DNA of 64,000 nucleotides from Escherichia phage W70. The notes under the pieces were generated by a model. That model worked only from the letters and a program-made list of their open reading frames with translations. It was not told the origin of the DNA and did not search any database. The DNA is taken from the sequence record OP778610; one strand, written 5' to 3'. Positions 1,691-62,699 of the stretch are shown here, piece after piece. The translations under genes and the position numbers were made by a program. How positions within the stretch are numbered: position 1 is the stretch's first letter; every line of letters starts with the position of its first letter.

Positions 1691-2920
1691 ATGCAAGCAA
1701 CTTATCAACGTATGGACCAAACCATGTTCAAAAAACGTATCAGTATCCGTGATATGGAACCACTGATCCGTCTGGGCGCTTCCATCGGTAAGACCGTGTT
1801 CTTTTTTGGTGGTGCAGGTCTTGGTAAGTCTGAAAAAGTAAAACAGATCGCGGACTCTATGTTCCCACATCGTGTAGGCAATAACCTGTGTGATGTTCGT
1901 CTGTCTGATAAAGAGCCACAAGATATTGCAGGCATTCCGATTCCGATCTCTTATCCAGATCCAAAGACTGGTGAAGAAGTTACCCGTACTGTATATGCTG
2001 TTCCAAACTTCTGGCCTACCGATCCTGATTGGGAAGGTATCGTGTTCCTGGATGAACTGCCGAACGCACCATTGGGTACTCAGCACTCTGCATATCAGGT
2101 TATTCTTGATCACGTTGCAGGTGAGCATAAGTTCCCGAAAGGTACTGTGTTTGTAGGTGCGGGTAACCGTGATACTGATGGAGCAGGGACAACATCTATG
2201 CCTGGTCCACTGGTTAACCGTATGATCATCGCCGAGGTTGATTATAATCTGGATGTGTGGATCGAAGATTATGCGATTCCGTTCCGTCTGCATCCGAACA
2301 TTATTGGTTTCTTGAAGCAGTTTCCAGAGCATTTCTATACTGGTGACGTAGAAAACCGAAGCACTCCGGTTTATTCATCTCCTCGTCAATGGAAAACAGC
2401 ATCTGACATTCTGTATAAGTACGATGCTGGCGAGATTAATGAATTTATCGCAGAGGTTGCCCTGGCAGGTACAGTTGGTGAAGGCTTGGAAGTACAGATC
2501 CTTGCTTACCATTTACGTGCTAAAGAACTTCCTCCGATTGAAGATATCTTTAGTGGTGCAGTTAAAGAACATAAACTTGATCGCAGTAAGAACGACCTTG
2601 TTTACGTACTGGCACAAACTGGTCTGCGTCGTATGGAAGATGAAGTTATGGATAACGATATGACTGATGATAAGTTCCTTGAACGTGCAGGTAACTTCCT
2701 TACGTTCATGTACAATAACTATTATGCAAACAACAAGGATACGATGATTGCTTTGATCTTGGGCGTGTTCCGTGGTCCAAACGATAAGCCATCTATCCTG
2801 ACTGTTAACCCGAAACGTCAGAAAATGATTCCGCTCATGCGTAAAAGTTGCCCGACTGTTTCTGCCGCAGTTATGGAATACATGACTCGCTATGGTCAAC
2901 TGATTAAAGAATTCGAATAA
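1691..2920 (+). CDS. AAA+ ATPase, MoxR/CbbQ-like
   Basis: Walker A GGAGLGKSE, Walker B FLDELPNA, sensor GAGNRD; SD AAGAGGAG upstream. Confidence 0.6.
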   Translation: MQATYQRMDQTMFKKRISIRDMEPLIRLGASIGKTVFFFGGAGLGKSEKVKQIADSMFPHRVGNNLCDVRLSDKEPQDIAGIPIPISYPDPKTGEEVTRTVYAVPNFWPTDPDWEGIVFLDELPNAPLGTQHSAYQVILDHVAGEHKFPKGTVFVGAGNRDTDGAGTTSMPGPLVNRMIIAEVDYNLDVWIEDYAIPFRLHPNIIGFLKQFPEHFYTGDVENRSTPVYSSPRQWKTASDILYKYDAGEINEFIAEVALAGTVGEGLEVQILAYHLRAKELPPIEDIFSGAVKEHKLDRSKNDLVYVLAQTGLRRMEDEVMDNDMTDDKFLERAGNFLTFMYNNYYANNKDTMIALILGVFRGPNDKPSILTVNPKRQKMIPLMRKSCPTVSAAVMEYMTRYGQLIKEFE

Positions 2921-3000: not shown

Positions 3001-4539
3001 ATGGCAAAACTTACGATTGAAGAAAGCAATATGATTGAAATGCAAGTCTCTGAAGCAGAGCGTATCATCGAGGCTGCTAGTCTACAACTGATGCGGTTTA
3101 AGCCCTTCTACGGGGTAATGCTTTCTTCTATGCCTGTTAAAAAGGCGACGGAGTGGTGTAGTACAATGGCGACTGATGGACGTAACCTGTATTACCATCC
3201 AGAGTTCGTTGCAGGTATGACAGAAGAACGTAAAAAATTGGTACTTGATCGACTTTCCAAAACTGAGAAAGATCCTAAAAAGCTGAAAGAGTCCACTGAG
3301 TTTATTAATGTCTTCTATCGTCGCAAGACTGCCCGTGAGCTTGCTCTTATTCTTGAGCACGAATGTGATCATGTGATCTCTGATCATGCCTCTCGTGGTA
3401 AAGGATTTAATCATGAACTTTACAACATTGCGGCTGACCATCGTATCAATACAACGGCTGTGCTTATTCACCAAAAAGGGGATGAGTTAGGTAAAGCATG
3501 GTTCCCTGCCGGAGAGAGAACAGTATTTGATAAGAATGCTGAGTTTGGATTTATGGCCTGGTCTTACTGTGATTTCCGATTCAAAGATATGTATACTGAG
3601 CAGATCTATGAAATCCTGAATAAAGAGCAAGATGATAAAGAAAAATCCAAAGGACAAGGTTCTGGTTCTGGAAGTGGAGAGGGTGATGGTGAAGAGGGTG
3701 ATCAAGGTCGTAAAGGTGTTGATCAGCACATGGACCAGAACGGCGATCCAGAAGATTCAGAAGGCGATAGTGTCGAAGATGCGTTAGGAATCGACCGTAA
3801 AGCGAAGCCTAAGCAAACAGCAGAGGAACGCCAGTATAACGATGGGGTTATGCGTCGAGCCATTGAGAATGCCGTACAGGCAGCAGGAAGCGGTGCGCCG
3901 GAAGATGCTCGTCGTTTTGTAGAAGCAGCAGGTAAACCAAAGATTAACTATCTTCGTTTGTTGCGTAAAACTATTGAACGTCTGTTTAAAGATGATGTAT
4001 CATATCGTCGTTTGTCACGCCGTAGTCACTCGTTAACTCGAACTCTTCGTAGTTCTGGTTACTTGTCTGGACGACAGACGATTGGTTTACCATCGAAGAA
4101 CAAACAGAAGACTATTCGTGCGGGTGTCTTCTTCGACGTATCGGGATCATTTAACGATGATCTATTGCGTCCAACAATGCGTGAGATTCGTGGATTATGT
4201 AATCTTTACGACGAATTTGAGGTCACGATGGCTTGCTGGTCAACAAAGGTTGGTAACATCGAGACGTATACGAAAAGAAACGTTGGTGAGATTGCTGACT
4301 ATAAGATCAAAACGACATTTGGTACGGATGTTTCTTGTGTGTTTGAAGCATTAGATGAAATGGAAGACCCTATGGATCAGATCATCATCTATACTGACGG
4401 TTACTTTGCTGATGTATCCCAAAAGAAAGATTGGGCCAAAAAGTATGGTAAGAATGTTCTTTGGATCATCCTGGGCCGTGGGTCTTCGTTCACCCCACCT
4501 TTCGGCAAGGCAATTGATTTTGACAAGTATCTTAAATAA
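3001..4539 (+). CDS. DUF2201-like protein: putative HExxH metallopeptidase-like N-domain plus VWA-like C-domain
   Basis: HExxH in LEHECDH; Gly/Ser/acidic low-complexity linker (aa ~215-250); C-terminal half VWA-like; directly follows AAA+ gene. Confidence 0.55.
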   Translation: MAKLTIEESNMIEMQVSEAERIIEAASLQLMRFKPFYGVMLSSMPVKKATEWCSTMATDGRNLYYHPEFVAGMTEERKKLVLDRLSKTEKDPKKLKESTEFINVFYRRKTARELALILEHECDHVISDHASRGKGFNHELYNIAADHRINTTAVLIHQKGDELGKAWFPAGERTVFDKNAEFGFMAWSYCDFRFKDMYTEQIYEILNKEQDDKEKSKGQGSGSGSGEGDGEEGDQGRKGVDQHMDQNGDPEDSEGDSVEDALGIDRKAKPKQTAEERQYNDGVMRRAIENAVQAAGSGAPEDARRFVEAAGKPKINYLRLLRKTIERLFKDDVSYRRLSRRSHSLTRTLRSSGYLSGRQTIGLPSKNKQKTIRAGVFFDVSGSFNDDLLRPTMREIRGLCNLYDEFEVTMACWSTKVGNIETYTKRNVGEIADYKIKTTFGTDVSCVFEALDEMEDPMDQIIIYTDGYFADVSQKKDWAKKYGKNVLWIILGRGSSFTPPFGKAIDFDKYLK

Positions 4540-32490: not shown

Positions 32491-32979
32491 TTATGGGCAA
32501 CACCGTGGAGATCTTCCACAGAAGAATTGCCAATTGGTTTCTGAGTCTTTGTAATTTACAAACCCTATCCTTCCGCACCCTTGTCCACTACAAACAGCCT
32601 CACGAGGATGATAGTCTATACTACAAGAGTGTGGATGGTCAAATGCTTCTCGTATTTCAACACATAGTCGGCTTAACCAGGCGAACATTTTTGGCATAGA
32701 AGCCTCAAGAAGTTTAAGTTCGTCGATCGTAGGTTTGTCTTTCTCAAGGAAGAAGTCATCTATCTCGGAAAACAAAATAACGTTTTGAACTATCCCGTCA
32801 GTTACCTTGTAAGAGAACTCCTCAGTAAGCCTCACGGTAACTTCCTCTATCAGTTCTTTTTCATTATCTTGATCTTTTGCCAGTCTTTCCTCAATCCATC
32901 GGATAATGAAGAATCTTTCTCTCTGAACATCCATGTTCAAAGTGTTGATTATTTTTTCATAGATTAGGTTTCCTTCCAT
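32491..32979 (-). CDS. hypothetical Cys-rich protein
   Basis: C-terminal Cys/His cluster HPHSCSIDYH..CSGQGCGR..CGRSPRCCP. Confidence 0.5.
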   Translation of the reverse strand: MEGNLIYEKIINTLNMDVQRERFFIIRWIEERLAKDQDNEKELIEEVTVRLTEEFSYKVTDGIVQNVILFSEIDDFFLEKDKPTIDELKLLEASMPKMFAWLSRLCVEIREAFDHPHSCSIDYHPREAVCSGQGCGRIGFVNYKDSETNWQFFCGRSPRCCP

Positions 32980-34091
32980 ACCTTGTCTTGTGCCTCCAGG
33001 ATAAGTTTTTCAACAATCTTCAGATCTGTTTTCTTTGGTAAGCTCGATTGCTTATAAAGAACATCTGTGATCATTTTATCTTTTTCTTCAGCCCAGTCAA
33101 CAATTTCTTCATAGCGGTATTCACCATTTCGGATTGCGAGGAGTTCTTCAGCGTCTGGTCGATTCACTAAAACTTTACCTTCTGTGAGGATTTCTTCACC
33201 CATCCGAAGAAGCCGGACCAAATGCATAGCATGTTTAGTGTCGTAACCGAACTTCTCTTCCAGTTCATGACGCTTCTCGTTACGATTCTTAACCCATTCC
33301 CAATAGTTGTGGTGTTTCTCCTTGGCCCATTTATGATCGTCAGCACAATACTTAACAATCATCAGTGTCTTACCTCTTTTAACTTCATCTGGGATTTCTT
33401 CATAGTCCAGCTTACGGATAGAACCATCTTTGTTAAACATAGGTTCAACATTTTCACGACGATCCTCTACAACGCCGTAAATGTTACTGCCGTAATGAAC
33501 CAAAGTACAGAAGCCTTCCATGTTTTTAAATTTACGAACAAAGTCTTCGTACTTCAACTCACCTTCTCCGAGATAGCTCTGCACCAGACGGAAATAGTCA
33601 AATTGAGTTGGTGGCTCTTTTGGTTGCGGATTATTAATGTGTTTGTTGTGACCCTTGATCCGCTTTAACTGAGACATTGCATAACCACTGAAGCGAAATG
33701 CAACTTCACGAGACAGTAAGGAGTAGAAATGTTCTTTCATCTCTTTCCAAGCTTCGTGCTCGTACAATGTGGCTTTCGGATCAGTAAAACCCAGTTCAAT
33801 GATATTTGGGTTCATCTTCGAAAACAGTTGAAGGAAAGTTCCCAATTCGTAGATCTTAGCATCCTCTTCACCAGGGATGTTTAATTCAGTAACCTCTTTG
33901 AATGGGGTACGAACCACATTTGGGGTTGCAACAAAAACCCCACGGATATCAATATCACTACCTTCGTTATTCGTACCATACGCATGAGATCCTGCCAGAC
34001 TCAACATCAGTACCTTCGCCACGTCTGGATGATTTTCCATCTTCTCTACGATACTTTTTACCTTTCCAGCACTCACAACTGAATTTTCCAT
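32964..34091 (-). CDS. Pol-beta superfamily nucleotidyltransferase (GS-x9-DxD)
   Basis: LAGSHAYGTNNEGSDIDIRGVF motif near N-terminus; 375 aa with long helical C-terminal region. Confidence 0.5.
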   Translation of the reverse strand: MENSVVSAGKVKSIVEKMENHPDVAKVLMLSLAGSHAYGTNNEGSDIDIRGVFVATPNVVRTPFKEVTELNIPGEEDAKIYELGTFLQLFSKMNPNIIELGFTDPKATLYEHEAWKEMKEHFYSLLSREVAFRFSGYAMSQLKRIKGHNKHINNPQPKEPPTQFDYFRLVQSYLGEGELKYEDFVRKFKNMEGFCTLVHYGSNIYGVVEDRRENVEPMFNKDGSIRKLDYEEIPDEVKRGKTLMIVKYCADDHKWAKEKHHNYWEWVKNRNEKRHELEEKFGYDTKHAMHLVRLLRMGEEILTEGKVLVNRPDAEELLAIRNGEYRYEEIVDWAEEKDKMITDVLYKQSSLPKKTDLKIVEKLILEAQDKVWKET

Positions 34092-35750: not shown

Positions 35751-36076
35751 TTTTTAACTCCGAAGATCTTAGATAGTAATTTATCATTCCCGATAGTTAC
35801 ACCACAAAAACTTTTTACTCCGTATACTAGATACGACCCGATTGTAACACAGATAATGATCGGATAAACAAGATACCAAAAGAATGTTGCAAGTATCCAC
35901 CCTGCCATCACCATACGTAAATTTACATTTTCGTTATTCAGTGGCTCCAGGATATAAATATCCTCACAATCTTTTGGGAAGGGGATGTTGAACCCCTTCT
36001 GCCGTAATTTGATCAGTAAGAACCAAAGTGGGCAACTAATAAGACAACCTATTAAATAACCTTCAACCATTTTCAC
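35747..36076 (-). CDS. hypothetical membrane protein, tandem paralog A
   Basis: WFLLIKLRQKGF motif; TM helices. Confidence 0.5.
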   Translation of the reverse strand: MKMVEGYLIGCLISCPLWFLLIKLRQKGFNIPFPKDCEDIYILEPLNNENVNLRMVMAGWILATFFWYLVYPIIICVTIGSYLVYGVKSFCGVTIGNDKLLSKIFGVKK

Positions 36077-37313
36077 TCTCCTTCAACTTGTCAAGATATT
36101 GTGTAACGTATCTTACTTTTACATTTCGGATTCTGCTCTTGATCTCATCTGGACGTCCCGCGAATTTTTCAGAAATCTCTTTACTTTCTTTTGAGATTGC
36201 AACACTGTTCTGAATAATCCCCGCCAGTGCTGAGAATAATACCAGTGGTTGACTGTAGTTGTCAAACATTTTTTCAGGTCCACGCCCACGAGCATCACAG
36301 ATGCAAGCGTCAATAAATTCAGAGAGGAATGCTTGGTCCTTTTCACCACGTAAGGCTACTAACAAGTCATAAACTTTCTTTGGCTTCATTTCTTTGATAC
36401 GGTGAAGTCGTGTATGATGCTCAGTTACAGCTAAAGCCAACTTCTTCCAATTATTGGGGACACCAAAGCGATCACAAACTTGTTCAGTTAACTTGATACC
36501 ATGTTCTTCGTGACCGTGCAGTTTACCCGTTAGCCAATAAATACATTTACCTAAGTCGTGACAAAGGACTGCCCACTTCACAGCCTCACTTGCACGAGTC
36601 GCCTGGGCATAATCCATGCAAAGTAAAGTGTGAACAAATGCATCACCTTCAGGATGGTGCTCCTTGGGTTGAACAACATCGTATAAATCCACAAGCTCAG
36701 GAAATTCTCCCAGTTGAGTCAACATACGGATCATTACCGAAGGTTTATTCATTTCTGACTGATCACTGAAGCATTTCTTAATCTCTGCAAATTTACGCTC
36801 TTTTGGCAATGCACTTAAATCCACACTCCGACACATTAGCCAAGTGTCAGGATCAATTGTAAACTCACCGCCGTATCTGGCATGTAATCTGGCTAGTCGG
36901 TACACACGTAAAGGGTCTTCGATAAATGCTTTAGTGGATACACAACGTAACCGACGAAGTTCAATATCCATTGCACCATTACAAGGGTCGATAATTTCGC
37001 CCGTGGAAATATCCTTGGCGATCGCATTAATGGTTAAATCTCTTCGCATCAGGTCTTGTTCAATTGTAACGTCTGGAGAGAACACAACTTCGAAATCGTG
37101 ATAACCAGGGCCTGTTGATCTTTCCGTTCGAGCAAGAGCATACTCTTCTTTAGTGTTCGGTTCAAGGTACACAGGGAAAGCTGCACCAACCTTAGTAAAT
37201 CCCTTCTCAATCATTTCTTCATGGGTCGCTCCAACTACAACGTAGTCACGATCCTTGCTTTCAACACTCATTAGTTCATCGCGAACTGCACCACCTACCA
37301 AGTAAACTTTCAT
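36063..37313 (-). CDS. cca: tRNA nucleotidyltransferase (CCA-adding enzyme) with HD domain
   Basis: MKVYLVGGAVRDELM, DRDYVV, RRDLTINAIA head-domain motifs; SD GGGAG 6 nt upstream of chosen ATG; track ORF extends to 37361. Confidence 0.7.
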   Translation of the reverse strand: MKVYLVGGAVRDELMSVESKDRDYVVVGATHEEMIEKGFTKVGAAFPVYLEPNTKEEYALARTERSTGPGYHDFEVVFSPDVTIEQDLMRRDLTINAIAKDISTGEIIDPCNGAMDIELRRLRCVSTKAFIEDPLRVYRLARLHARYGGEFTIDPDTWLMCRSVDLSALPKERKFAEIKKCFSDQSEMNKPSVMIRMLTQLGEFPELVDLYDVVQPKEHHPEGDAFVHTLLCMDYAQATRASEAVKWAVLCHDLGKCIYWLTGKLHGHEEHGIKLTEQVCDRFGVPNNWKKLALAVTEHHTRLHRIKEMKPKKVYDLLVALRGEKDQAFLSEFIDACICDARGRGPEKMFDNYSQPLVLFSALAGIIQNSVAISKESKEISEKFAGRPDEIKSRIRNVKVRYVTQYLDKLKESENG

Positions 37314-37351
37314 TCCTTCTTCTCCCATTCTTTCCAATTCTGCATGTCCGC

Positions 37352-37516
37352 TCATAGCCATCCCCTTTCTTTATACCCTTTTGTAAATCCTGATTCCCAA
37401 TCTTGAAATTGCTCCGGCATGGTGTTTGGATTATACGGGTTGTTTCTCTTGAACATCCCAAACTTGAATCCAGCGGCTCGGCCCTTCTCGTATGCTGAAC
37501 TGCTTTTTCTTGTCAT
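37352..37516 (-). CDS. hypothetical small basic protein
   Basis: internal ATG overlapping upstream stop; 54 aa. Confidence 0.35.
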   Translation of the reverse strand: MTRKSSSAYEKGRAAGFKFGMFKRNNPYNPNTMPEQFQDWESGFTKGYKERGWL

Positions 37517-56060: not shown

Positions 56061-56368
56061 GCTGATTCCCCTTCTTCGGTATTATCAAGATAATGATACT
56101 GGTCGATTAAGAACACATAGTTCTTTACTTCTCCGTCCATGTAAACCATAAAAGTTACATATTTCTCATCATAGAACGGATCACCAACAACATAGATCTG
56201 GCAGATAGAATCAACACGTTTGTCAAACCACTGGATTCGCCAAGGCTCCTCAAGCATAGTCCAAGGTTCTTCAATCTTGTAGACCTGGCGCTTTGCGCCA
56301 GGAACGAGTGCTGCACGAATTTCGTCAGCGATCATAACATCATCAAAACTCTCAGAAAAACCCGACAT
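56057..56368 (-). CDS. hypothetical protein
   Basis: 103 aa. Confidence 0.5.
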   Translation of the reverse strand: MSGFSESFDDVMIADEIRAALVPGAKRQVYKIEEPWTMLEEPWRIQWFDKRVDSICQIYVVGDPFYDEKYVTFMVYMDGEVKNYVFLIDQYHYLDNTEEGESA

Positions 56369-57477
56369 TAAATACCTACCCGTTTTAAAGTTGAGGCTAA
56401 TGTTGTCTTATCATTTTCTGTACGCTTCATATAAACACACTGGAAAATGACAGAAGCCCACTGACCCGCCGAAAACTTACGATGATTACCTAAATGATCT
56501 GTGTATTCAACACCATCAGGAAACCACTTCTTATATTGATCAATAATAGCCAACCACATACTCTTCTCGTCTGCACAAGGGGAGATGACCTGGAAAGCCG
56601 ATGTTTCACCAAAGCGAAGACCCTCGAAGGTTTGATATGGTTTAACGTTATCCGCTGCATCACCAAATAGCATTTGGTAACCGAAGAATTTCTTACCCCA
56701 ACCTTTTACCTTACCAGACTCCATCCAGATCTCACCCATAGAATCATCGATCAACCAAAGTTCAGGATGTTTCCATGTACGCTCTGTTGAGTCACGCATT
56801 GTGTTAAACAACAAAGAAGGAACCTGAACCTGATCCTTATCGAATGATGCCACAATATGACTAAACTTTCCAGTCTTCCGATAATTTAAATATCCTTTAT
56901 ATCCAAGGATCGATAAATAATCATCTGCCTCAATACCATCCACAATGATCGCACCATACTTCTGCTGAACATATCGACGAGTCTCCCCAAGCAACAGAGG
57001 ACGTAAAGTATCTTCACGGTTACCCTTATAGATCTCAGGGGTCGGGAGTGCAAGACGGAAGTTACCACTCCCACCTAAAACACCAAGCCCGTTTGCTGAT
57101 CCTACGTGTTCAAGAATAGCATTGATCTTAATCTTCAATAAGTGAAGACAGTTCTCCACTGGTTCTGGAGTTTGCTTTTCAATGATCTCGAAATCATCAC
57201 GGGTCCACGGAGTAAATTCTTTTCCGCGAGCAACCGCTTTTGCTTCCATATTAATGTTTTGGTCTTTTAACCATCCACCAACAACATTCTTTTGGCGACC
57301 CCAGAATTCTGTTCGATTTTTAAACTCTTTCTCTCGGCCTGTTTCTTTGTGCCGAGCAATGATCGTTCGCTTCTCTGCACCTGCCGCAGCCACGTATGCT
57401 GTCTGGTCCAGATCCAATGCCACGACAACATTATCTTCGACAATACCTGACCAATCTTTAATTACCGGATAACCCAT
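56368..57477 (-). CDS. 5'-3' exonuclease / flap endonuclease (PIN-like)
   Basis: PEIYKGNRE, GIEADDYLSILG and FGDAADNVKP motifs of the FEN family. Confidence 0.65.
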   Translation of the reverse strand: MGYPVIKDWSGIVEDNVVVALDLDQTAYVAAAGAEKRTIIARHKETGREKEFKNRTEFWGRQKNVVGGWLKDQNINMEAKAVARGKEFTPWTRDDFEIIEKQTPEPVENCLHLLKIKINAILEHVGSANGLGVLGGSGNFRLALPTPEIYKGNREDTLRPLLLGETRRYVQQKYGAIIVDGIEADDYLSILGYKGYLNYRKTGKFSHIVASFDKDQVQVPSLLFNTMRDSTERTWKHPELWLIDDSMGEIWMESGKVKGWGKKFFGYQMLFGDAADNVKPYQTFEGLRFGETSAFQVISPCADEKSMWLAIIDQYKKWFPDGVEYTDHLGNHRKFSAGQWASVIFQCVYMKRTENDKTTLASTLKRVGI

Positions 57478-57491
57478 GAAATCTCCCCTTA

Positions 57492-58010
57492 TTAAAATGC
57501 TTCGCCGTAATCTTCGTCTTCTTTAACTTCTTTTACTGGTCGCTTAAATTTGAAATCTTGACCCATGTATTCATACAGATAATCAATATTCAAAGACCAT
57601 TCTTGCTTACTTCTTTGTCGCCATAAACTAAATTCTTCTTTCAAATAATCAATCGCCTGATCACGAGTGATGTTGTTAACCTTCATGAATTGACGAATTG
57701 CCCTTTCAAGGTGTCCATTCTTTTGTGCTAACCCAGGATGCATGAATTCATGACAAGGTGGGCAAAGACACATAAGGCCGACAAGTTTAACCTCTCCATT
57801 TTCAAAAGTCCACTCTTCATGACATTCTACCGCATGTTTTCTTCCATTACCTCCCTGACCGTTACATATCTGACAATGCCAGTTGTGCTCTGCATAACTT
57901 TTCTTGCGGATCTTATCCCATTGGGACTGAGTAAGATATGAACGTAAATTGTTATTCCATGCTGTCTGTGGGATTATGCAAATTTTATGTTTTATATCTA
58001 CCATTTTCAT
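57492..58010 (-). CDS. HNH/His-Me-finger nuclease-like zinc-binding protein
   Basis: HCQICNG..RKHAVECHEEW and CPPCHEFMHPG. Confidence 0.4.
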   Translation of the reverse strand: MKMVDIKHKICIIPQTAWNNNLRSYLTQSQWDKIRKKSYAEHNWHCQICNGQGGNGRKHAVECHEEWTFENGEVKLVGLMCLCPPCHEFMHPGLAQKNGHLERAIRQFMKVNNITRDQAIDYLKEEFSLWRQRSKQEWSLNIDYLYEYMGQDFKFKRPVKEVKEDEDYGEAF

Positions 58011-58516
58011 TTTCCTCTAAAGTTGCCTTCCAGTTCAGGGTATTTTTCATTTTTTAGATCGAGGTAAGCTTGTTTTGCTTCCTCTTCTGTTTTGCAATAC
58101 TTCACGTACTCTCGACCACCCCTGTTAAGTCTTGCTTGCCAGCAATTACTCTTTTTATGCCAACGATAACCTTTACTCAGTGACCTGTTTACGTTGTTTG
58201 CAGATCTATCGACTTCTCGCAGATTCCAACCTGCATTATTTTGTCTATTCCCGTCTATGTGATCAATATCTCCAAGAGGCCAATACCCATTAAGAATGAA
58301 AAACACAACTCTATGCGCCCTATAAGTTTTGTCATTAAGATTCCCGTAAAAATAATTACGATCTCCTTTCTTACATGTTGTGAAGGCGGGATCTCCTATC
58401 TCAGACCTTATTCTCTTTATCTTCCAACGAAGACCTGTATAACTTGACTCATCAACCCCCAGCGATAACTTTATATTTTCAAGTTCCTCCTCGGTTGGGA
58501 CTCTAACTTTTGTCAT
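58007..58516 (-). CDS. HNH homing endonuclease (HNH_3 type)
   Basis: GDIDHIDGNRQNNAGWNLREVDRSAN; paralog of 17955 and 62199 genes. Confidence 0.7.
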   Translation of the reverse strand: MTKVRVPTEEELENIKLSLGVDESSYTGLRWKIKRIRSEIGDPAFTTCKKGDRNYFYGNLNDKTYRAHRVVFFILNGYWPLGDIDHIDGNRQNNAGWNLREVDRSANNVNRSLSKGYRWHKKSNCWQARLNRGGREYVKYCKTEEEAKQAYLDLKNEKYPELEGNFRGK

Positions 58517-59068
58517 TTAATATGCCTCACATTTACCAATCATATTCATAGCTTCAGAAACATCGATAATCATATCGGTTGCTTCGTCCCAAGCTTTCCC
58601 CAAGAGATTCTCACCATACCAGAAACTTTCATCATCTACCATAGGGTGATTCTCATCCATACCGATCCCCCATATACGATCTCTCGGAGAAGCCTCTACA
58701 AACTTTAAACCCTTTTTACGGTAACCTACCGCAAGTTCACGGAGATTACCATTATCACACATACGACTATACACTAAACGGGTTACAATGTTAAATTTAT
58801 TTTCATCCCAAACTGCCTGATCAAAATCCTTAACTTTACGACCTAGCCTTTTAGCACCTTGTGGAGTTACAGATTTAAGGATTCTTTCCGCTGAAGCTTT
58901 GTCACCGAAAAGCATAGCCTTTTCATACATCATGTAATGCTCACCTGTGTGGAAATAAACCCCTTTCATCTTCTGGTCGAAGTTTGAAAACGGAGAGATC
59001 TCCTGGTAATGATTACTAAAAACATCACGAAAAGAATAAAAGAACACATGTTTATCAGTGACTCGCAT
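58517..59068 (-). CDS. NADAR-domain protein (YbiA-like ADP-ribose N-glycosidase fold)
   Basis: FFYSFRDVFSNHYQ, GEHYMMYEKAMLFGD, LKFVEASPRDRIWGIG motifs; start moved to internal ATG with SD AGGAG (track ORF to 59161). Confidence 0.65.
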   Translation of the reverse strand: MRVTDKHVFFYSFRDVFSNHYQEISPFSNFDQKMKGVYFHTGEHYMMYEKAMLFGDKASAERILKSVTPQGAKRLGRKVKDFDQAVWDENKFNIVTRLVYSRMCDNGNLRELAVGYRKKGLKFVEASPRDRIWGIGMDENHPMVDDESFWYGENLLGKAWDEATDMIIDVSEAMNMIGKCEAY

Positions 59069-59204
59069 AAAAACTCCTATAGATCTAATGCAGATATTGA
59101 AATCAAGAATAGCACTACCGAAAGTAATCCGTCCGGCGTACTGAAAAATCCAATCCAGCACGCTCTTGTGAACAGGTAGAATGCCAGTATTAAAACGATA
59201 ACCC

Positions 59205-59441
59205 CTAAGAATGTTTCGATTTTTCTAACTCCCGAGCCATAATCTTCGTAATGTCAGCAAACGCAACATAAGCATGTTTGTAACAACCTACATCAACATT
59301 GAGAGACTTGATCTCCTCTTCTAATGAATTTATTACATGAAGTGTTTGACGAATAAGATCAACATCCTTAGTCGTTACATTGGGCGAAGCTGTCATCAAC
59401 TTAAGCCTTTCTTTAATCGTTTCGATATCTTGATTATACAT
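59205..59441 (-). CDS. hypothetical small protein
   Basis: 78 aa. Confidence 0.45.
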   Translation of the reverse strand: MYNQDIETIKERLKLMTASPNVTTKDVDLIRQTLHVINSLEEEIKSLNVDVGCYKHAYVAFADITKIMARELEKSKHS

Positions 59442-59766
59442 TCACAATCTCCAGTAAAGATCCAGGAATTGAAACAGAACAGTTTTCTGCCATCGGGAAT
59501 TTAGCAATCCAATCTGAAAGGCTGCAATAGGCAGACCAATCAAAGTCTTCGTCGAAAACGACAATATTATTAAATTCCACACCATCAAGATTAACAATCT
59601 TTTTAATAATCAGGTCTTCGATCTGACTTGCCTTAAAAAGACCACAGATTTTGGATGGCAAGTTAAGTCCCCACCGTTCACGAAATTCAGAATCTTCAAA
59701 CTTGAAGAAACCAACTGCCTTTGCCAAGTCTGCTGCACGGACCTCTAAAATAACCAATTTACTCAT
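59434..59766 (-). CDS. hypothetical protein
   Basis: 110 aa. Confidence 0.5.
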   Translation of the reverse strand: MSKLVILEVRAADLAKAVGFFKFEDSEFRERWGLNLPSKICGLFKASQIEDLIIKKIVNLDGVEFNNIVVFDEDFDWSAYCSLSDWIAKFPMAENCSVSIPGSLLEIVNV

Positions 59767-60015
59767 TTAATTTTCTCCTCGATCTGTGTAGTGCTGTATA
59801 ATCTCATTTAAACATTTACCTGTCAACGAAAATTTCTTAGCTACGTAGCATTCGAGAATATGCTCTTTCAAGTCTTCAGAGTCAGTGTATCCCATCTTCA
59901 CAATGAAGTTGCGAATCTTAGCCTTATCTTTATCATTTAAAGAATTAAAATAATCACTTTTAGAATTAATTATCCTCATTTTCAAGTTTCCTGATCTGAT
60001 AGTAAAGAGAGTCAA
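59767..60015 (-). CDS. hypothetical small protein
   Basis: 82 aa; alternative start at 59979. Confidence 0.45.
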   Translation of the reverse strand: MTLFTIRSGNLKMRIINSKSDYFNSLNDKDKAKIRNFIVKMGYTDSEDLKEHILECYVAKKFSLTGKCLNEIIQHYTDRGEN

Positions 60016-60238
60016 TGATCTCTTCGTTGGCCTTAATGTACATATCCCGTAAGAAAGGTTTCAACCCATCACGCAAAATATTTCCATCACAAGCATCGTT
60101 CAGGTATGGATGACCTAGAGCCTCCCAGGCAGGTTGATTGGTATAAGTGCCCCAGCCTTCATTCATCATCTGGTTAAGATACTCGATTTGTTTTATCTTA
60201 AGCTGCAAAGCTTCAATAGTAAGCTGTTTAATGTTCAT
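59966..60238 (-). CDS. hypothetical small protein
   Basis: 90 aa. Confidence 0.45.
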   Translation of the reverse strand: MNIKQLTIEALQLKIKQIEYLNQMMNEGWGTYTNQPAWEALGHPYLNDACDGNILRDGLKPFLRDMYIKANEEIIDSLYYQIRKLENEDN

Positions 60239-60702
60239 CAGTAAAGGTCCTCCGAGTAAAGTTCTTTCTCACTTCCACCACGTTCGATACGTACCTGTCC
60301 GGCATAAGTTGCAATAACCATTGCTTCTTCACGAGTCCAGTAATTTGAATATTGATCAATAAAGCCTTGATCATCACCACAAACTTGTTGTGAAACTAAT
60401 TGGGGACCAACCACATCAAGCACTTCAGCCATATCTTTAGAGTAATGACGAGCACCAGGAATGACTATAGTTCCACCATCCTTCAATTTAAACCGATTAG
60501 CAGCACATACAATAGTACGTTGAACTTTTTGATCATTATTCCAATGACATGTTTGCCAACAGATCTCAGGAATATCGTCCATCATATCTTCGAAAGAGTA
60601 ATCAGCATTTCCGTATGACTGTAGTTTTTCAAACAAACTCTCTGGAGTTTCACGAGACAAAGCTTTATCCAATAATTCCAGACGTTCTTTAAAAGTTTTC
60701 AA
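60238..60702 (-). CDS. hypothetical protein
   Basis: 154 aa. Confidence 0.5.
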
Positions 60703-62198: not shown

Positions 62199-62699
62199 TT
62201 ATTTCCAATAAAATTTACCATTAAGATGAGGGTAGAGTTCAAGTTTCTTTTTCTCGTACCACTCCCTCGCTTCTTTTTCACTTAAGGTGTTTTTAGTATA
62301 CACCCTAACTCCGCACTTTACAACACTTCTCCAACAATTTTTCTCTGTACACCAAAAATAACCACGAGCTATTTTATTAGCACCGTTATCCAAATGATCA
62401 ACCTCTCGGAGATTATCAGGATTGTTGTTACTTTTATCTCTGTCTATATGGTCTATTATACCACTAGGCCAATAGCCTCTGTCAAGAAAAAATACAACTC
62501 GGTGACAAAGATACGGCTTATTCAAAAATCTACCAGAGAAATACCCACTCTTTGTTACTGTGGTCATTGCTGGGTCACCAACCAAAGCCCTTGGCCCAGG
62601 TGATAACTTCCAACGAAGAAAACTTATACTTGTGTCATCTACGAAAAGATAATCATTGATTGCATAAAGTTCCTTATCACTTGGGATGTATATTTTCAT
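62199..62699 (-). CDS. HNH homing endonuclease (HNH_3 type)
   Basis: GIIDHIDRDKSNNNPDNLREVDHLDN; paralog of 17955 and 58007 genes. Confidence 0.7.
   Translation of the reverse strand: MKIYIPSDKELYAINDYLFVDDTSISFLRWKLSPGPRALVGDPAMTTVTKSGYFSGRFLNKPYLCHRVVFFLDRGYWPSGIIDHIDRDKSNNNPDNLREVDHLDNGANKIARGYFWCTEKNCWRSVVKCGVRVYTKNTLSEKEAREWYEKKKLELYPHLNGKFYWK

Follow-up and report, generated by a model that had tools for sequence, protein, structure and literature searches.

Positions 58517..59068 of the window (the 64,000-nucleotide stretch of DNA analysed here, matched to Escherichia phage A73, OP778609.1, Vequintavirinae, whose name we use for the phage of the window) hold a minus-strand open reading frame that raises the question of whether this phage encodes an enzyme that removes ADP-ribose from nucleic acids and, if so, which host defence such an enzyme would counter.

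Gene boundaries and start codon

The frame runs from an ATG (59068..59066) to a TAA stop codon (58519..58517) and encodes 183 aa, as the original prediction had placed it; the coding assignment draws on the ORF translation, the match to PF08719, AlphaFold2/Foldseek comparison and dN/dS (see below). Reading the sequence upstream of the ATG revealed a strong ribosome-binding site, the Shine-Dalgarno sequence AGGAG (59074..59078, minus strand), which lies 5 nt from the start codon and is kept in 5/5 close relatives. The GenBank annotation begins at a GTG (59161) and yields 214 aa, a start that we rejected as an over-extension: an in-frame TGA interrupts the supposed N-terminal extension in the sister phage LTH01, all substitutions among relatives are non-synonymous in the extension frame, the N-terminus of homologues reads MR[VI]TDK, and AGGAG precedes the ATG at 59068. 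Judged from these sequence comparisons, the 183-aa start is better than that of GenBank. Upstream of the gene lies a 136-nt non-coding spacer (59069..59204, minus strand), 93 nt of which are wrongly included in the GenBank CDS. We found no consensus sigma-70 promoter and no terminator on the minus strand of this spacer, nor a regulatory RNA signal (RNA fold z-score -0.74), and Rfam and tRNA searches of the window returned no matches.

A NADAR fold with a complete Glu-type active site

The original prediction called this frame a NADAR-domain protein, and profile searches bear this out. The protein matches PF08719 (NADAR, DUF1768) at E=4.1e-37 and 128.4 bits, compared with a cut-off of 35.1, over profile positions 11-158 of 163, and it also matches PHROG 1017 (E=1.4e-46) and NCBIfam TIGR02464 (128 bits; cut-off 73.7), while sequence matches in the PDB are 8BAU (E=3.6e-13) and 2B3W, which is YbiA (E=1.2e-5). 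An AlphaFold2 model (pLDDT 97, pTM 0.91) contains the YbiA-like alpha-helical core fold, and its best Foldseek match in the PDB is 8BAU over the full length (E=6e-10, TM 0.74), followed by 2B3W (E=8e-6, TM 0.69-0.75), with nothing significant beyond these two. The product of 58517..59068 is a genuine NADAR protein, far beyond chance.

The crystal structure 8BAU shows the Phytophthora nicotianae enzyme PnNADAR in complex with ADP-ribose and is the archetype of NADARs that are not associated with DarT (Schuller et al. 2023, PMC11543638); its ADP-ribose contacts and catalytic residues are E43, K50, R79, W89, R93, E125, D130 and W133 (PMC11543638). In alignments to 8BAU every one of these is matched in the A73 protein, by E43, K50, R77, W87, K91, E125, D130 and W133, so the conserved NADAR blocks that had been noticed at the outset amount to a full active site. 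The first block, aligned with HMMER, comprises the codons of G42-K50 (GEHYMMYEK; 58919..58945, minus strand), in which E43 coordinates the distal ribose and K50, which is essential, the pyrophosphate (roles from PMC11543638). These two residues align with the Glu and Lys of T4 gp30.3, the Bas60 NADAR and YbiA, and their equivalents are E88/K95 in the E. coli C7 NADAR, E43/K50 in PnNADAR and E36/K43 in AdfN. The pyrophosphate-binding block covers the codons of R77-W87 (58808..58840, minus strand), with the K91 codon (58796..58798, minus strand) just past it, and R77, W87 and K91 correspond to the pyrophosphate-binding R79, W89 and R93 of PnNADAR (roles from PMC11543638). The codons of V124-G136 (VEASPRDRIWGIG; 58661..58699, minus strand) carry E125, D130 and W133, aligned with the residues of the same numbers in 8BAU, and D130 and W133 are assigned as pyrophosphate contacts by this alignment. 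Conservation follows the same residues: neither E43 nor K50 varies across 67-69 homologues, R77, W87, E125 and D130 as well as G76 are invariant among 67 homologues, and W133 is conserved in at least 90%.

E125, within a VEAS motif, is the catalytic acid and the mark of the Glu-type NADAR and YbiA families, as Schuller/Ahel name them (the YbiA clade of de Souza & Aravind). Since this second catalytic position separates the families, being Glu, Asp (DarG1) or His (T4-like) (PMC11543638, PMC12945103), the Glu found in the A73 protein, equivalent to E125 of PnNADAR and E167 of SCO5665, makes it Glu-type. We predict that the protein is an N-glycohydrolase of ADP-ribosyl-guanine and possibly also of ADP-ribosyl-cytosine.

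Relationship to characterised NADARs

To place the protein among NADARs of known function, we built a profile from the A73-type family and scored it against the characterised members, the bit scores standing in for a phylogeny. The Bas60 NADAR scored 174 bits, PnNADAR (8BAU) 129 bits (E=1e-36), YbiA about 71 bits (E=6e-19) and T4 gp30.3 3 bits, and no chain of the Geobacter DarG1 NADAR was retrieved from the PDB at E<=1. By this measure the A73 protein resembles the 'NADAR' family of PnNADAR type more than it does YbiA proper.

The nearest characterised relative is NADAR^Bas60 (bas60_0111 of phage PaulScherrer, MZ501100), with 39.4% identity over 170 residues (E=4e-31); no experimentally tested relative exceeds 40% identity. 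NADAR^Bas60, which is nearly identical to gp223 of phi92, is like the A73 protein a stand-alone, phage-encoded protein of 183 aa, and the two have in common the N-terminus MR[VI]TDK.VFF.S..D.FSN.Y, the Glu-bearing catalytic block FVEASP.D and an NLLGK motif. They differ in two insertions and a Tyr at the position of W133 in NADAR^Bas60, in lineage (Stephanstirmvirinae/Justusliebigvirus for Bas60 versus Vequintavirinae for A73) and in setting, as the Bas60 gene follows a CapR/T5orf172 endonuclease gene whereas that of A73 lies in a ligase-exonuclease interval. PnNADAR matches the A73 protein over the whole fold (TM 0.74, 186 aligned columns) and shares all ADP-ribose-binding and catalytic residues, Glu125 included, but it is eukaryotic, only 27% identical, carries an inserted loop that separates its WGIG motif from the last helix, and has no known tie to phage defence.

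The remaining relatives are more distant. DarG1 (E. coli C7, Geobacter lovleyi) belongs to the same superfamily, de-ADP-ribosylates the N2 of guanine and, as judged by alignment, has the same Glu/Lys pair. It differs in sitting beside darT1 (the A73 gene has no adjacent darT1), in its length of 229-234 aa compared with 183 aa, in its Asp catalytic acid (D171 in C7) where A73 has Glu125, and in an N-terminal beta1-beta2-alpha1 extension of about 45 aa with a basic DNA groove, which is missing from the A73 protein, whose modelled core starts at residue 1 with a short strand. AdfN, or T4 gp30.3 (PF08010, Phage_30_3), was the first phage anti-DarTG1 NADAR and is an orphan enzymatic antitoxin of a lytic coliphage; its Glu/Lys pair aligns with that of the A73 protein, for which the same role is proposed here. 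Nevertheless, the two have no detectable pairwise similarity (BLASTP E=0.77) and belong to different Pfam families, T4 gp30.3 matching PF08010 at 237 bits and the A73 protein not at all, and T4 gp30.3 carries His instead of Glu at the catalytic position. YbiA (2B3W) resembles the A73 protein in fold and Glu-type active site, and both pass TIGR02464, but it is distant in sequence (phmmer E=1e-5, no significant BLASTP match) and has neither the N-terminal strand nor the loop located near residues 137-150. YbiA is known as an N-glycosidase of riboflavin intermediates and also removes guanine- and cytosine-ADP-ribose in vitro.

An accessory gene beside mobile endonucleases

The gene had also been described as lying between HNH endonuclease genes, with mobile acquisition suggested. 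The first part is correct only loosely, as both adjacent HNH genes are on the 3' side and the next HNH gene on the upstream side (62199..62699) is 3.1 kb and ten annotated genes away, the immediate upstream neighbour being a hypothetical gene (59205..59441). Directly downstream, HNHb (58007..58516, minus strand) encodes a free-standing HNH_3 homing-type endonuclease (Pfam HNH_3, E=2e-11; PHROG 99) that is 44% identical to the paralogue at 62199..62699. The insertion falls precisely at the junction of the NADAR stop codon with the gene that follows, and it is present only in A73, being missing from this site in UPEC06, LTH01, A5-4 and A7_1. Beyond it, HNHa (57492..58010, minus strand; PHROG 5200, E=3e-70) encodes an HNH-type endonuclease and comes after NADAR in every relative, and likewise in CR8, a Cronobacter phage of the genus Certrevirus. 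HNHa is 80% identical to CR8 gp235 compared with 65-67% to the copies in the closest relatives, indicating that this segment is mosaic.

The suggestion of mobile acquisition did not hold for NADAR itself. The order DNA ligase ... NADAR - HNH - exonuclease recurs in CR8, whose NADAR is 56% identical, and NADAR occupies the identical position in 5/5 close relatives; its GC content (39.1% compared with 40.4% for the window) and GC3 are ordinary. We therefore discarded a recent horizontal or mobile gain. A dN/dS of 0.02-0.05 among close relatives shows that the gene is under strong purifying selection. The mobile pieces at this locus, as far as these comparisons indicate, are the HNH genes around NADAR and not NADAR, the HNHb insertion being the example. 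Within the subfamily NADAR is patchy, carried by the A73 group, CR8 and other Vequintavirinae-type phages, and an HMM search of rV5 detected none in the syntenic ligase-exonuclease interval or in positions 45001-137947; this is the pattern of an accessory gene. The NADAR allele of the sister phage A7_1 appears to be naturally frameshifted by a 1-nt deletion; A5-4 encodes an intact NADAR identical in protein sequence to that of A73.

There is no evidence for a functional link between NADAR and HNHa: the neighbour in Bas60 is the unrelated CapR/T5orf172 endonuclease, and the Bas60 NADAR works alone (PMC11257639). The neighbours of the A73 gene encode HNH endonucleases, an exonuclease and small hypothetical proteins, with no ADP-ribosyltransferase domain and no gene specifically linked to ADP-ribose. 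No other ADP-ribose or NAD domain was detected in the roughly 45 window proteins scanned, and tblastn found no anti-DarTG2 macrodomain companion (T4 Tk.4/AdfM, rV5 gp204 homologue) in the window.

A probable counter-defence against DarTG1

What would such an enzyme do during infection? NADARs are established guanine-ADP-ribose glycohydrolases (PMC11543638), just as the original prediction had stated, and removal of guanine-ADP-ribose in vitro is common to every NADAR family that has been tested. Phage NADARs have moreover been shown by experiment to counter the toxin-antitoxin system DarTG1 (PMC11257639), examples being AdfN, NADAR^Bas32 and NADAR^Bas60. With NADAR^Bas60, three phages sensitive to DarTG1 plated several logs better (Johannesman, Carlson & LeRoux 2024, PMC11257639), and the protein neutralised DarT1 without phage but was of no help to a phage that DarTG2 blocks (PMC11257639); DarTG2 modifies thymine, and no tested NADAR gave rescue from it.

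We propose that the A73 protein, encoded in the DNA replication and recombination block of the phage, is a stand-alone and catalytically competent glycohydrolase of the Glu-type 'NADAR proper' family to which the Phytophthora and Bas60 NADARs belong. During infection, the DarT1-type ADP-ribosyltransferase of a host DarTG1 system would mark guanine in phage DNA and the mark would block replication; the A73 enzyme would then release ADP-ribose from the exocyclic N2 of guanine by cutting the N-glycosidic bond, allowing the phage to replicate, and would thus act in counter-defence as an 'orphan antitoxin'. We consider it probable that the A73 protein is such a guanine-ADP-ribose eraser directed against DarTG1. 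The domain, the fold, the full set of active-site residues, the purifying selection on the gene and its homology to an anti-DarTG1 NADAR of tested function were all observed directly, and from them we infer that the A73 protein would have guanine-ADP-ribose activity and confer protection in vivo. The earlier candidate role against 'DarT-type' toxins is accordingly kept as well supported by homology to Bas60 (39%, E=4e-31) but narrowed, as that wording was too wide: DarT1, which modifies guanine, is the sole toxin expected as target, to the exclusion of DarTG2.

Several observations weigh against an anti-DarTG1 role. The A73 protein lacks the features that are thought to adapt DarG1 to DarT1, the N-terminal extension and the Asp; it passes TIGR02464, 'riboflavin intermediates N-glycosidase'; and its neighbourhood has no ADP-ribose genes. 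Activity in vitro, moreover, does not imply protection in cells, since YbiA and T4 gp30.3 are active in vitro on guanine-ADP-ribose, yet neither rescued uninfected cells from DarT1 toxicity; a sigma-70-linked E. coli NADAR gave only partial rescue from this toxicity.

The A73 protein adds to a known class and brings no new mechanism, as an anti-DarTG1 role has already been shown for a related phage protein. If its role is confirmed, the orphan-antitoxin NADARs gain a clade from the A73 group and Certrevirus, Seunavirus and Mydovirus-type phages, whose hosts are E. coli, Cronobacter, Pectobacterium, Salmonella and Klebsiella. Several of these phages are considered for therapy or biocontrol, and confirmation would help to predict which of them plate on DarTG1-carrying strains.

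Other substrates

The Glu at the catalytic position leaves room for a wider substrate range. The A73 NADAR might act on marks other than the products of DarT1, or on these and others, by clearing the ADP-ribose that further ADP-ribosyltransferase toxins (resembling pierisin, ScARP or YarT) or as yet unknown defence enzymes attach to guanine and cytosine of either DNA or RNA. On DNA and RNA alike, Glu-type NADAR and YbiA enzymes cleared cytidine-ADP-ribose as well as guanosine-ADP-ribose, unlike the Asp-type (DarG1) and His-type (T4) enzymes, which acted on guanosine-ADP-ribose only (PMC12945103), and guanosine-ADP-ribose on RNA is reversed by all NADAR families (PMC11833690). A YbiA-type NADAR also serves as the antitoxin for YarT, a toxin unrelated to DarT, and Johannesman et al. 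point out that for an eraser enzyme it makes no difference which toxin placed the mark. Set against this, E. coli is not known to have any anti-phage system that ADP-ribosylates cytidine specifically or guanine in RNA, and counteraction of DarTG1 is the sole demonstrated biological role of phage NADARs (PMC11257639). We regard this broader activity as unlikely to be the better account of the A73 protein, and it would extend the DarTG1 explanation rather than oppose it. A related proposition, which also follows from the Glu-type active site and which we put forward tentatively and hold as rather unlikely, is that the A73/Certrevirus-type NADAR guards Vequintavirinae not against DarTG1 alone but against several unrelated ADP-ribosylating defences, some of them undiscovered, that act on guanine or cytosine in DNA or RNA. 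If so, the frameshifted allele of A7_1 would be a ready isogenic probe for such defences in E. coli panels.

A different kind of substrate was proposed by Iyer, Burroughs and Aravind, who assigned a small-molecule role to most phage NADAR, Macro, SLOG and Nudix proteins on the basis of their co-occurrence and the prevalence of NAD-consuming defences (PMC9503650), a proposal that also speaks against the anti-DarTG1 reading. The A73 enzyme would then degrade soluble ADP-ribose derivatives (cyclic ADP-ribose isomers, NAD-derived immune signals or toxins) and not nucleic-acid adducts. However, such activity has been shown for no NADAR, the Bas60 NADAR, the closest relative that has been tested, has DNA adducts as its substrate and can rescue phages on DarTG1 hosts (PMC11257639), and no SLOG, Macro, Nudix or NAD-salvage gene adjoins NADAR or occurs among the roughly 45 window proteins scanned, making this a decidedly improbable function.

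Very improbable is a YbiA-like housekeeping N-glycosidase (COG3236/TIGR02464) that destroys reactive intermediates of the riboflavin pathway, although TIGR02464 is passed at 128 bits versus 74 and relatives bear YbiA, N-glycosidase or GTP cyclohydrolase II labels. The Bas60 NADAR, which is anti-DarTG1, passes this model as well (109 bits), so its name does not discriminate, and PnNADAR (129 bits) clearly outscores YbiA (71 bits) against the family profile. Furthermore, the domain is stand-alone with no RibA or RibD fusion, the neighbourhood contains no riboflavin genes, and a lytic phage would seem to have no obvious need for riboflavin damage control. Least credible of all is a role, together with phage RNA-repair enzymes, in processing the ADP-ribose by-products that RNA repair leaves behind (end healing of the Tpt1/KptA type): de Souza and Aravind saw NADARs associated with RNA-repair genes, and in the window there are indeed genes for an RlaP-family RNA-repair nucleotidyltransferase (32964..34091) and for a CCA-adding enzyme (36063..37355), but these genes lie 21-25 kb from NADAR with no Tpt1/KptA or RNA ligase nearby, and tested NADARs are inactive on RNA ADP-ribosylated at phosphate ends (PMC11833690).

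Relatives of the A73 NADAR are often labelled 'YbiA', 'N-glycosidase' or 'GTP cyclohydrolase II' in the databases. Should the anti-DarTG1 role be confirmed, the labels 'hypothetical protein', 'YbiA' and 'GTP cyclohydrolase II' could be corrected in several hundred phage records with related NADARs.

Identity and predicted active site of the A73 NADAR protein

Across positions 57400-59800 the window matches Escherichia phage A73 at 100% identity (OP778609.1, 142 kb; window coordinates equal record coordinates minus 68686), an unclassified member of the Vequintavirinae with E. coli K-12 as isolation host and animal faeces as source, and DNA at least 90% identical to this segment occurs in only four other records, those of phages A5-4, A7_1, UPEC06 and vB_EcoM-LTH01. 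The minus-strand NADAR ORF begins with an ATG at 59068 and ends with a TAA at 58519..58517 (183 aa), with a ribosome-binding site (AGGAG) on the same strand 5 nt 5' of the ATG. In GenBank, A73_189 begins at a GTG at 59161 and is a 'hypothetical protein, COG3236' of 214 aa. We rejected this start and regard the extension as non-coding because LTH01 has an in-frame TGA there, all substitutions among relatives in the supposed N-terminal extension are non-synonymous in that frame, NADAR is annotated in UPEC06 and LTH01 as the 552-bp version, and homologues of other genera and phi92 gp223 start with MR[VI]TDK. The originally predicted ORF, 58517..59068, is therefore exactly right. The annotated starts of A73_189 and of A5-4_183 (3001..3645 in the A5-4 sequence L011) are both 93 nt too early (window 59069..59161), giving 214 instead of 183 aa.

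The proposed NADAR identity was confirmed by profile matches of the 183-aa protein to Pfam PF08719 (E=4.1e-37, 128 bits, cut-off 35), PHROG 1017 (E=1.4e-46) and NCBIfam TIGR02464 (128 bits, cut-off 74) and by matches in the PDB to the Phytophthora nicotianae NADAR (PnNADAR, 8BAU; E=3.6e-13) and E. coli YbiA (2B3W; E=1.2e-5). An AlphaFold2 model computed with 67 homologues as input (mean pLDDT 97, pTM 0.91) found significant Foldseek matches in the PDB only to the 8BAU ADP-ribose complex (TM 0.74, 186 columns) and to YbiA (TM 0.69-0.75). In PnNADAR the pyrophosphate is held by K50, R79, W89, R93 and W133, and by D130 via water, and the distal ribose by E43 and E125; E. coli C7 NADAR requires the E/K pair and the second acidic residue (Schuller et al., PMC11543638). 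HMMER alignments place A73 K50, R77, W87, K91, W133, D130, E43 and E125 at the PnNADAR ligand positions, and among 67-69 homologues F10, E43, M47, K50, A51, F54, K73, G76, R77, W87, E125, D130, N154 and L156 are invariant, with conservation of at least 90% for W133 and G134. Judged from these alignments, the predicted active site is complete. Families can be told apart by the second catalytic position, at which 'NADAR' and 'YbiA' members have Glu, DarT1-associated DarG1 has Asp and T4-like phage NADARs have His (PMC11543638, PMC12945103); the corresponding column holds Glu in A73 (VEAS), Cronobacter phage CR8, Bas60 and YbiA, and His in T4 gp30.3.

To place the protein within the superfamily, we compared bit scores of a profile built from the A73-type family, which reached 238 bits for CR8 gp236, 174 for the Bas60/phi92 NADAR, 129 for PnNADAR (E=1e-36), 71-72 for YbiA and a non-significant 3 for T4 gp30.3, and gave no match to Geobacter DarG1 structures at E<=1. 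These scores point to membership in the 'NADAR proper' group, which is neither DarT-associated nor YbiA, the same group to which Johannesman et al. assigned NADAR^Bas60 (PMC11257639). By tblastn, NADAR homologues are present in 717 records of the GenBank phage collection, mostly large myoviruses of Staphylococcus, Escherichia, Listeria, Enterococcus, Bacillus and Klebsiella. NCBIfam also holds a 'NADAR family anti-phage protein' model (NF053876, DS32_2), and NADAR domains thus serve the defence side too; A73 NADAR (29 bits) and YbiA (102 bits) both score far under its cut-off of 240.

Predicted removal of guanine-linked ADP-ribose and resistance to DarTG1

The chemistry ascribed to the family in the original prediction holds, as NADARs hydrolyse the guanine-N2-ADP-ribose written by DarT1 (PMC11543638), and guanine-ADP-ribose is removed in vitro by each of the four NADAR families (PMC11125620). 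A73 NADAR is very likely an active guanine-ADP-ribose glycohydrolase. T4 gp30.3 (AdfN) is both required for DarTG1 resistance and enough to confer it. With ectopic NADAR^Bas32 or NADAR^Bas60, three DarTG1-sensitive phages plate several logs better; both proteins neutralise DarT1 in uninfected cells, and neither rescues a DarTG2-blocked phage (PMC11257639); YbiA and T4 gp30.3 do not rescue DarT1 toxicity in cells despite their activity in vitro (PMC11125620). NADAR^Bas60 (bas60_0111, 82014..82565 of phage PaulScherrer, MZ501100; 97.6% nucleotide identity to phi92 gp223) shares 39.4% identity with A73 NADAR (E=4e-31). Together with the complete predicted active site, this homology favours the proposed anti-DarT counter-defence for DarTG1 but not for DarTG2, and the biological role of A73 NADAR is probably anti-DarTG1. 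E. coli strains can carry DarT1-NADAR systems (PMC11125620), so the target is relevant to the host of A73. The anti-DarTG1 idea itself dates from 2024, when it was established for phage NADARs generally and for the homologue with 39% identity; A73 NADAR adds one more predicted member to this known class. Bas60, termed 'Vequintavirinae' in the anti-DarTG1 paper (PMC11257639), is now placed in Stephanstirmvirinae/Justusliebigvirus, and the tested phage NADARs therefore include none from phages now classed in Vequintavirinae.

We infer the substrate, the time of expression and the protective effect in vivo as follows: NADAR would be made from the leftward replication/recombination block (DNA ligase ... 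NADAR ... exonuclease, RuvC-like, endonuclease VII, polymerase) and would strip ADP-ribose off guanines in replicating phage DNA, so that the DarT1 block would be undone. A broader eraser, acting on guanine and cytosine in DNA and RNA against other ADP-ribosyltransferases, is compatible with Glu125, since cytidine-ADP-ribose in DNA and RNA is also removed by NADARs of the Glu type (PMC12945103), and we give it a small chance. Degradation of a small ADP-ribose signal, as hypothesised by Iyer and Aravind (PMC9503650), is improbable: it is demonstrated for no NADAR, and no SLOG, Macro or Nudix genes lie nearby. The protein passes TIGR02464, as an N-glycosidase for riboflavin intermediates would, but that name does not discriminate because the anti-DarTG1 Bas60 NADAR passes too; riboflavin gene context is absent, and this function is very improbable. 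Processing of RNA-repair by-products is hardly credible, with the RlaP and CCA-adding genes 21-25 kb off and phosphate-end ADP-ribosylated RNA untouched by tested NADARs (PMC11833690).

A resident gene among mobile HNH endonucleases

On the minus strand, the 5'-to-3' order is hypothetical gene (59205..59441), 136-nt spacer (59069..59204), NADAR, HNHb (58007..58516, its ATG abutting the NADAR stop codon), HNHa (57492..58010) and exonuclease (56368..57477), so both adjoining HNH genes are downstream; the next, HNHc (62199..62699), lies 10 annotated genes upstream. NADAR thus lies between HNH genes, as had been described, only in a loose sense. CR8 (genus Certrevirus) has, in this order, ligase ... 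NADAR (gp236, 56% identity), HNH (gp235) and exonuclease, and UPEC06, LTH01, A5-4 and A7_1 have NADAR, HNHa, a variable part and exonuclease. HNHb, 44% identical to HNHc, is found in A73 only; in A5-4, HNHa and exonuclease are separated by an HNH gene other than HNHb. A73 HNHa is 80% identical to CR8 gp235 versus only 65-67% to the copies of the closest relatives, while NADAR identity between A73 and those relatives is 96-100%; a mosaic boundary therefore lies exactly at the NADAR stop codon, and it looks as if homing or gene conversion brought in a foreign allele at 57492..58516. The GC content of NADAR (39.1%; GC3 34.8%) is in line with its surroundings. Synteny, HNH distribution and GC thus argue against the suggested mobile acquisition of NADAR, which is resident in a variable ligase-to-exonuclease interval while homing endonucleases move around it.

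In the subfamily's type phage, rV5, the order is ligase, endolysin, HNH ... exonuclease (NC_011041 70186..74572, L014 25186..29572) without NADAR, and none was found when rV5 positions 45001-137947 were searched by HMM. Within the subfamily as a whole NADAR is accessory, as would suit a gene for counter-defence. The interval spans only about 2 kb in rV5 (endolysin, HNH, two 'transposase-like' ORFs) and more than 5 kb in A73 and CR8, with NADAR and many small ORFs; it is an accessory-gene hot spot in Vequintavirinae. T4 adfN (gene 30.3; 1808..2266 in the T4 sequence L009) lies about 1 kb from DNA ligase gene 30, and the NADARs of A73 and CR8, unrelated to it in sequence, likewise sit in a block beside DNA ligase, perhaps by chance, perhaps because placement among replication genes has converged.

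Purifying selection and a split orthologue

Pairwise dN/dS among the A73, A5-4, UPEC06 and LTH01 NADARs is 0.02-0.05 (dS 0.22-0.31 for diverged pairs; a single synonymous site separates A73 from A5-4), indicating that purifying selection maintains the gene, with A7_1 as the exception. The A7_1 orthologue (OP795442.1 130060..130703, L012 2961..3604) lacks one base about 286 nt from the start of the ORF, which splits it into two annotated CDSs. Either the sequence is in error here or the allele is a natural null; there is a parallel in RB69, a DarTG1-sensitive phage whose adfN is frameshifted.

The spacer at 59069..59204 differs between A73 and UPEC06 at 3 of 139 positions versus about 6% (dS ~0.3) for the ORF and may be a conserved regulatory element, though a search of it for a sigma-70 consensus, terminator, stable fold or Rfam match found none; CR8 has no such spacer 5' of NADAR.

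Other genes of the window

Just upstream of the NADAR block, three small ORFs (59767..60702, minus strand) are annotated in GenBank as 'anti-restriction nuclease', which appears unsupported: none matches Pfam, and the largest matches only PHROG 839, a function-unknown group. An RlaP-family RNA-repair nucleotidyltransferase (32964..34091, minus strand; PF10127, E=7e-19) is near a CCA-adding tRNA nucleotidyltransferase (36063..37355, minus strand), and ARAGORN found no tRNA genes in the whole 64-kb window. At 21542..25040 (minus strand), three tandem 'hypothetical' genes (377-399 aa) each match RCC1-like beta-propeller repeats (PF25390, 40-90 bits, under the cut-off of 150; two of the three reach the short-repeat models PF13540/PF00415), an unusual paralogous array for a phage early or middle region.
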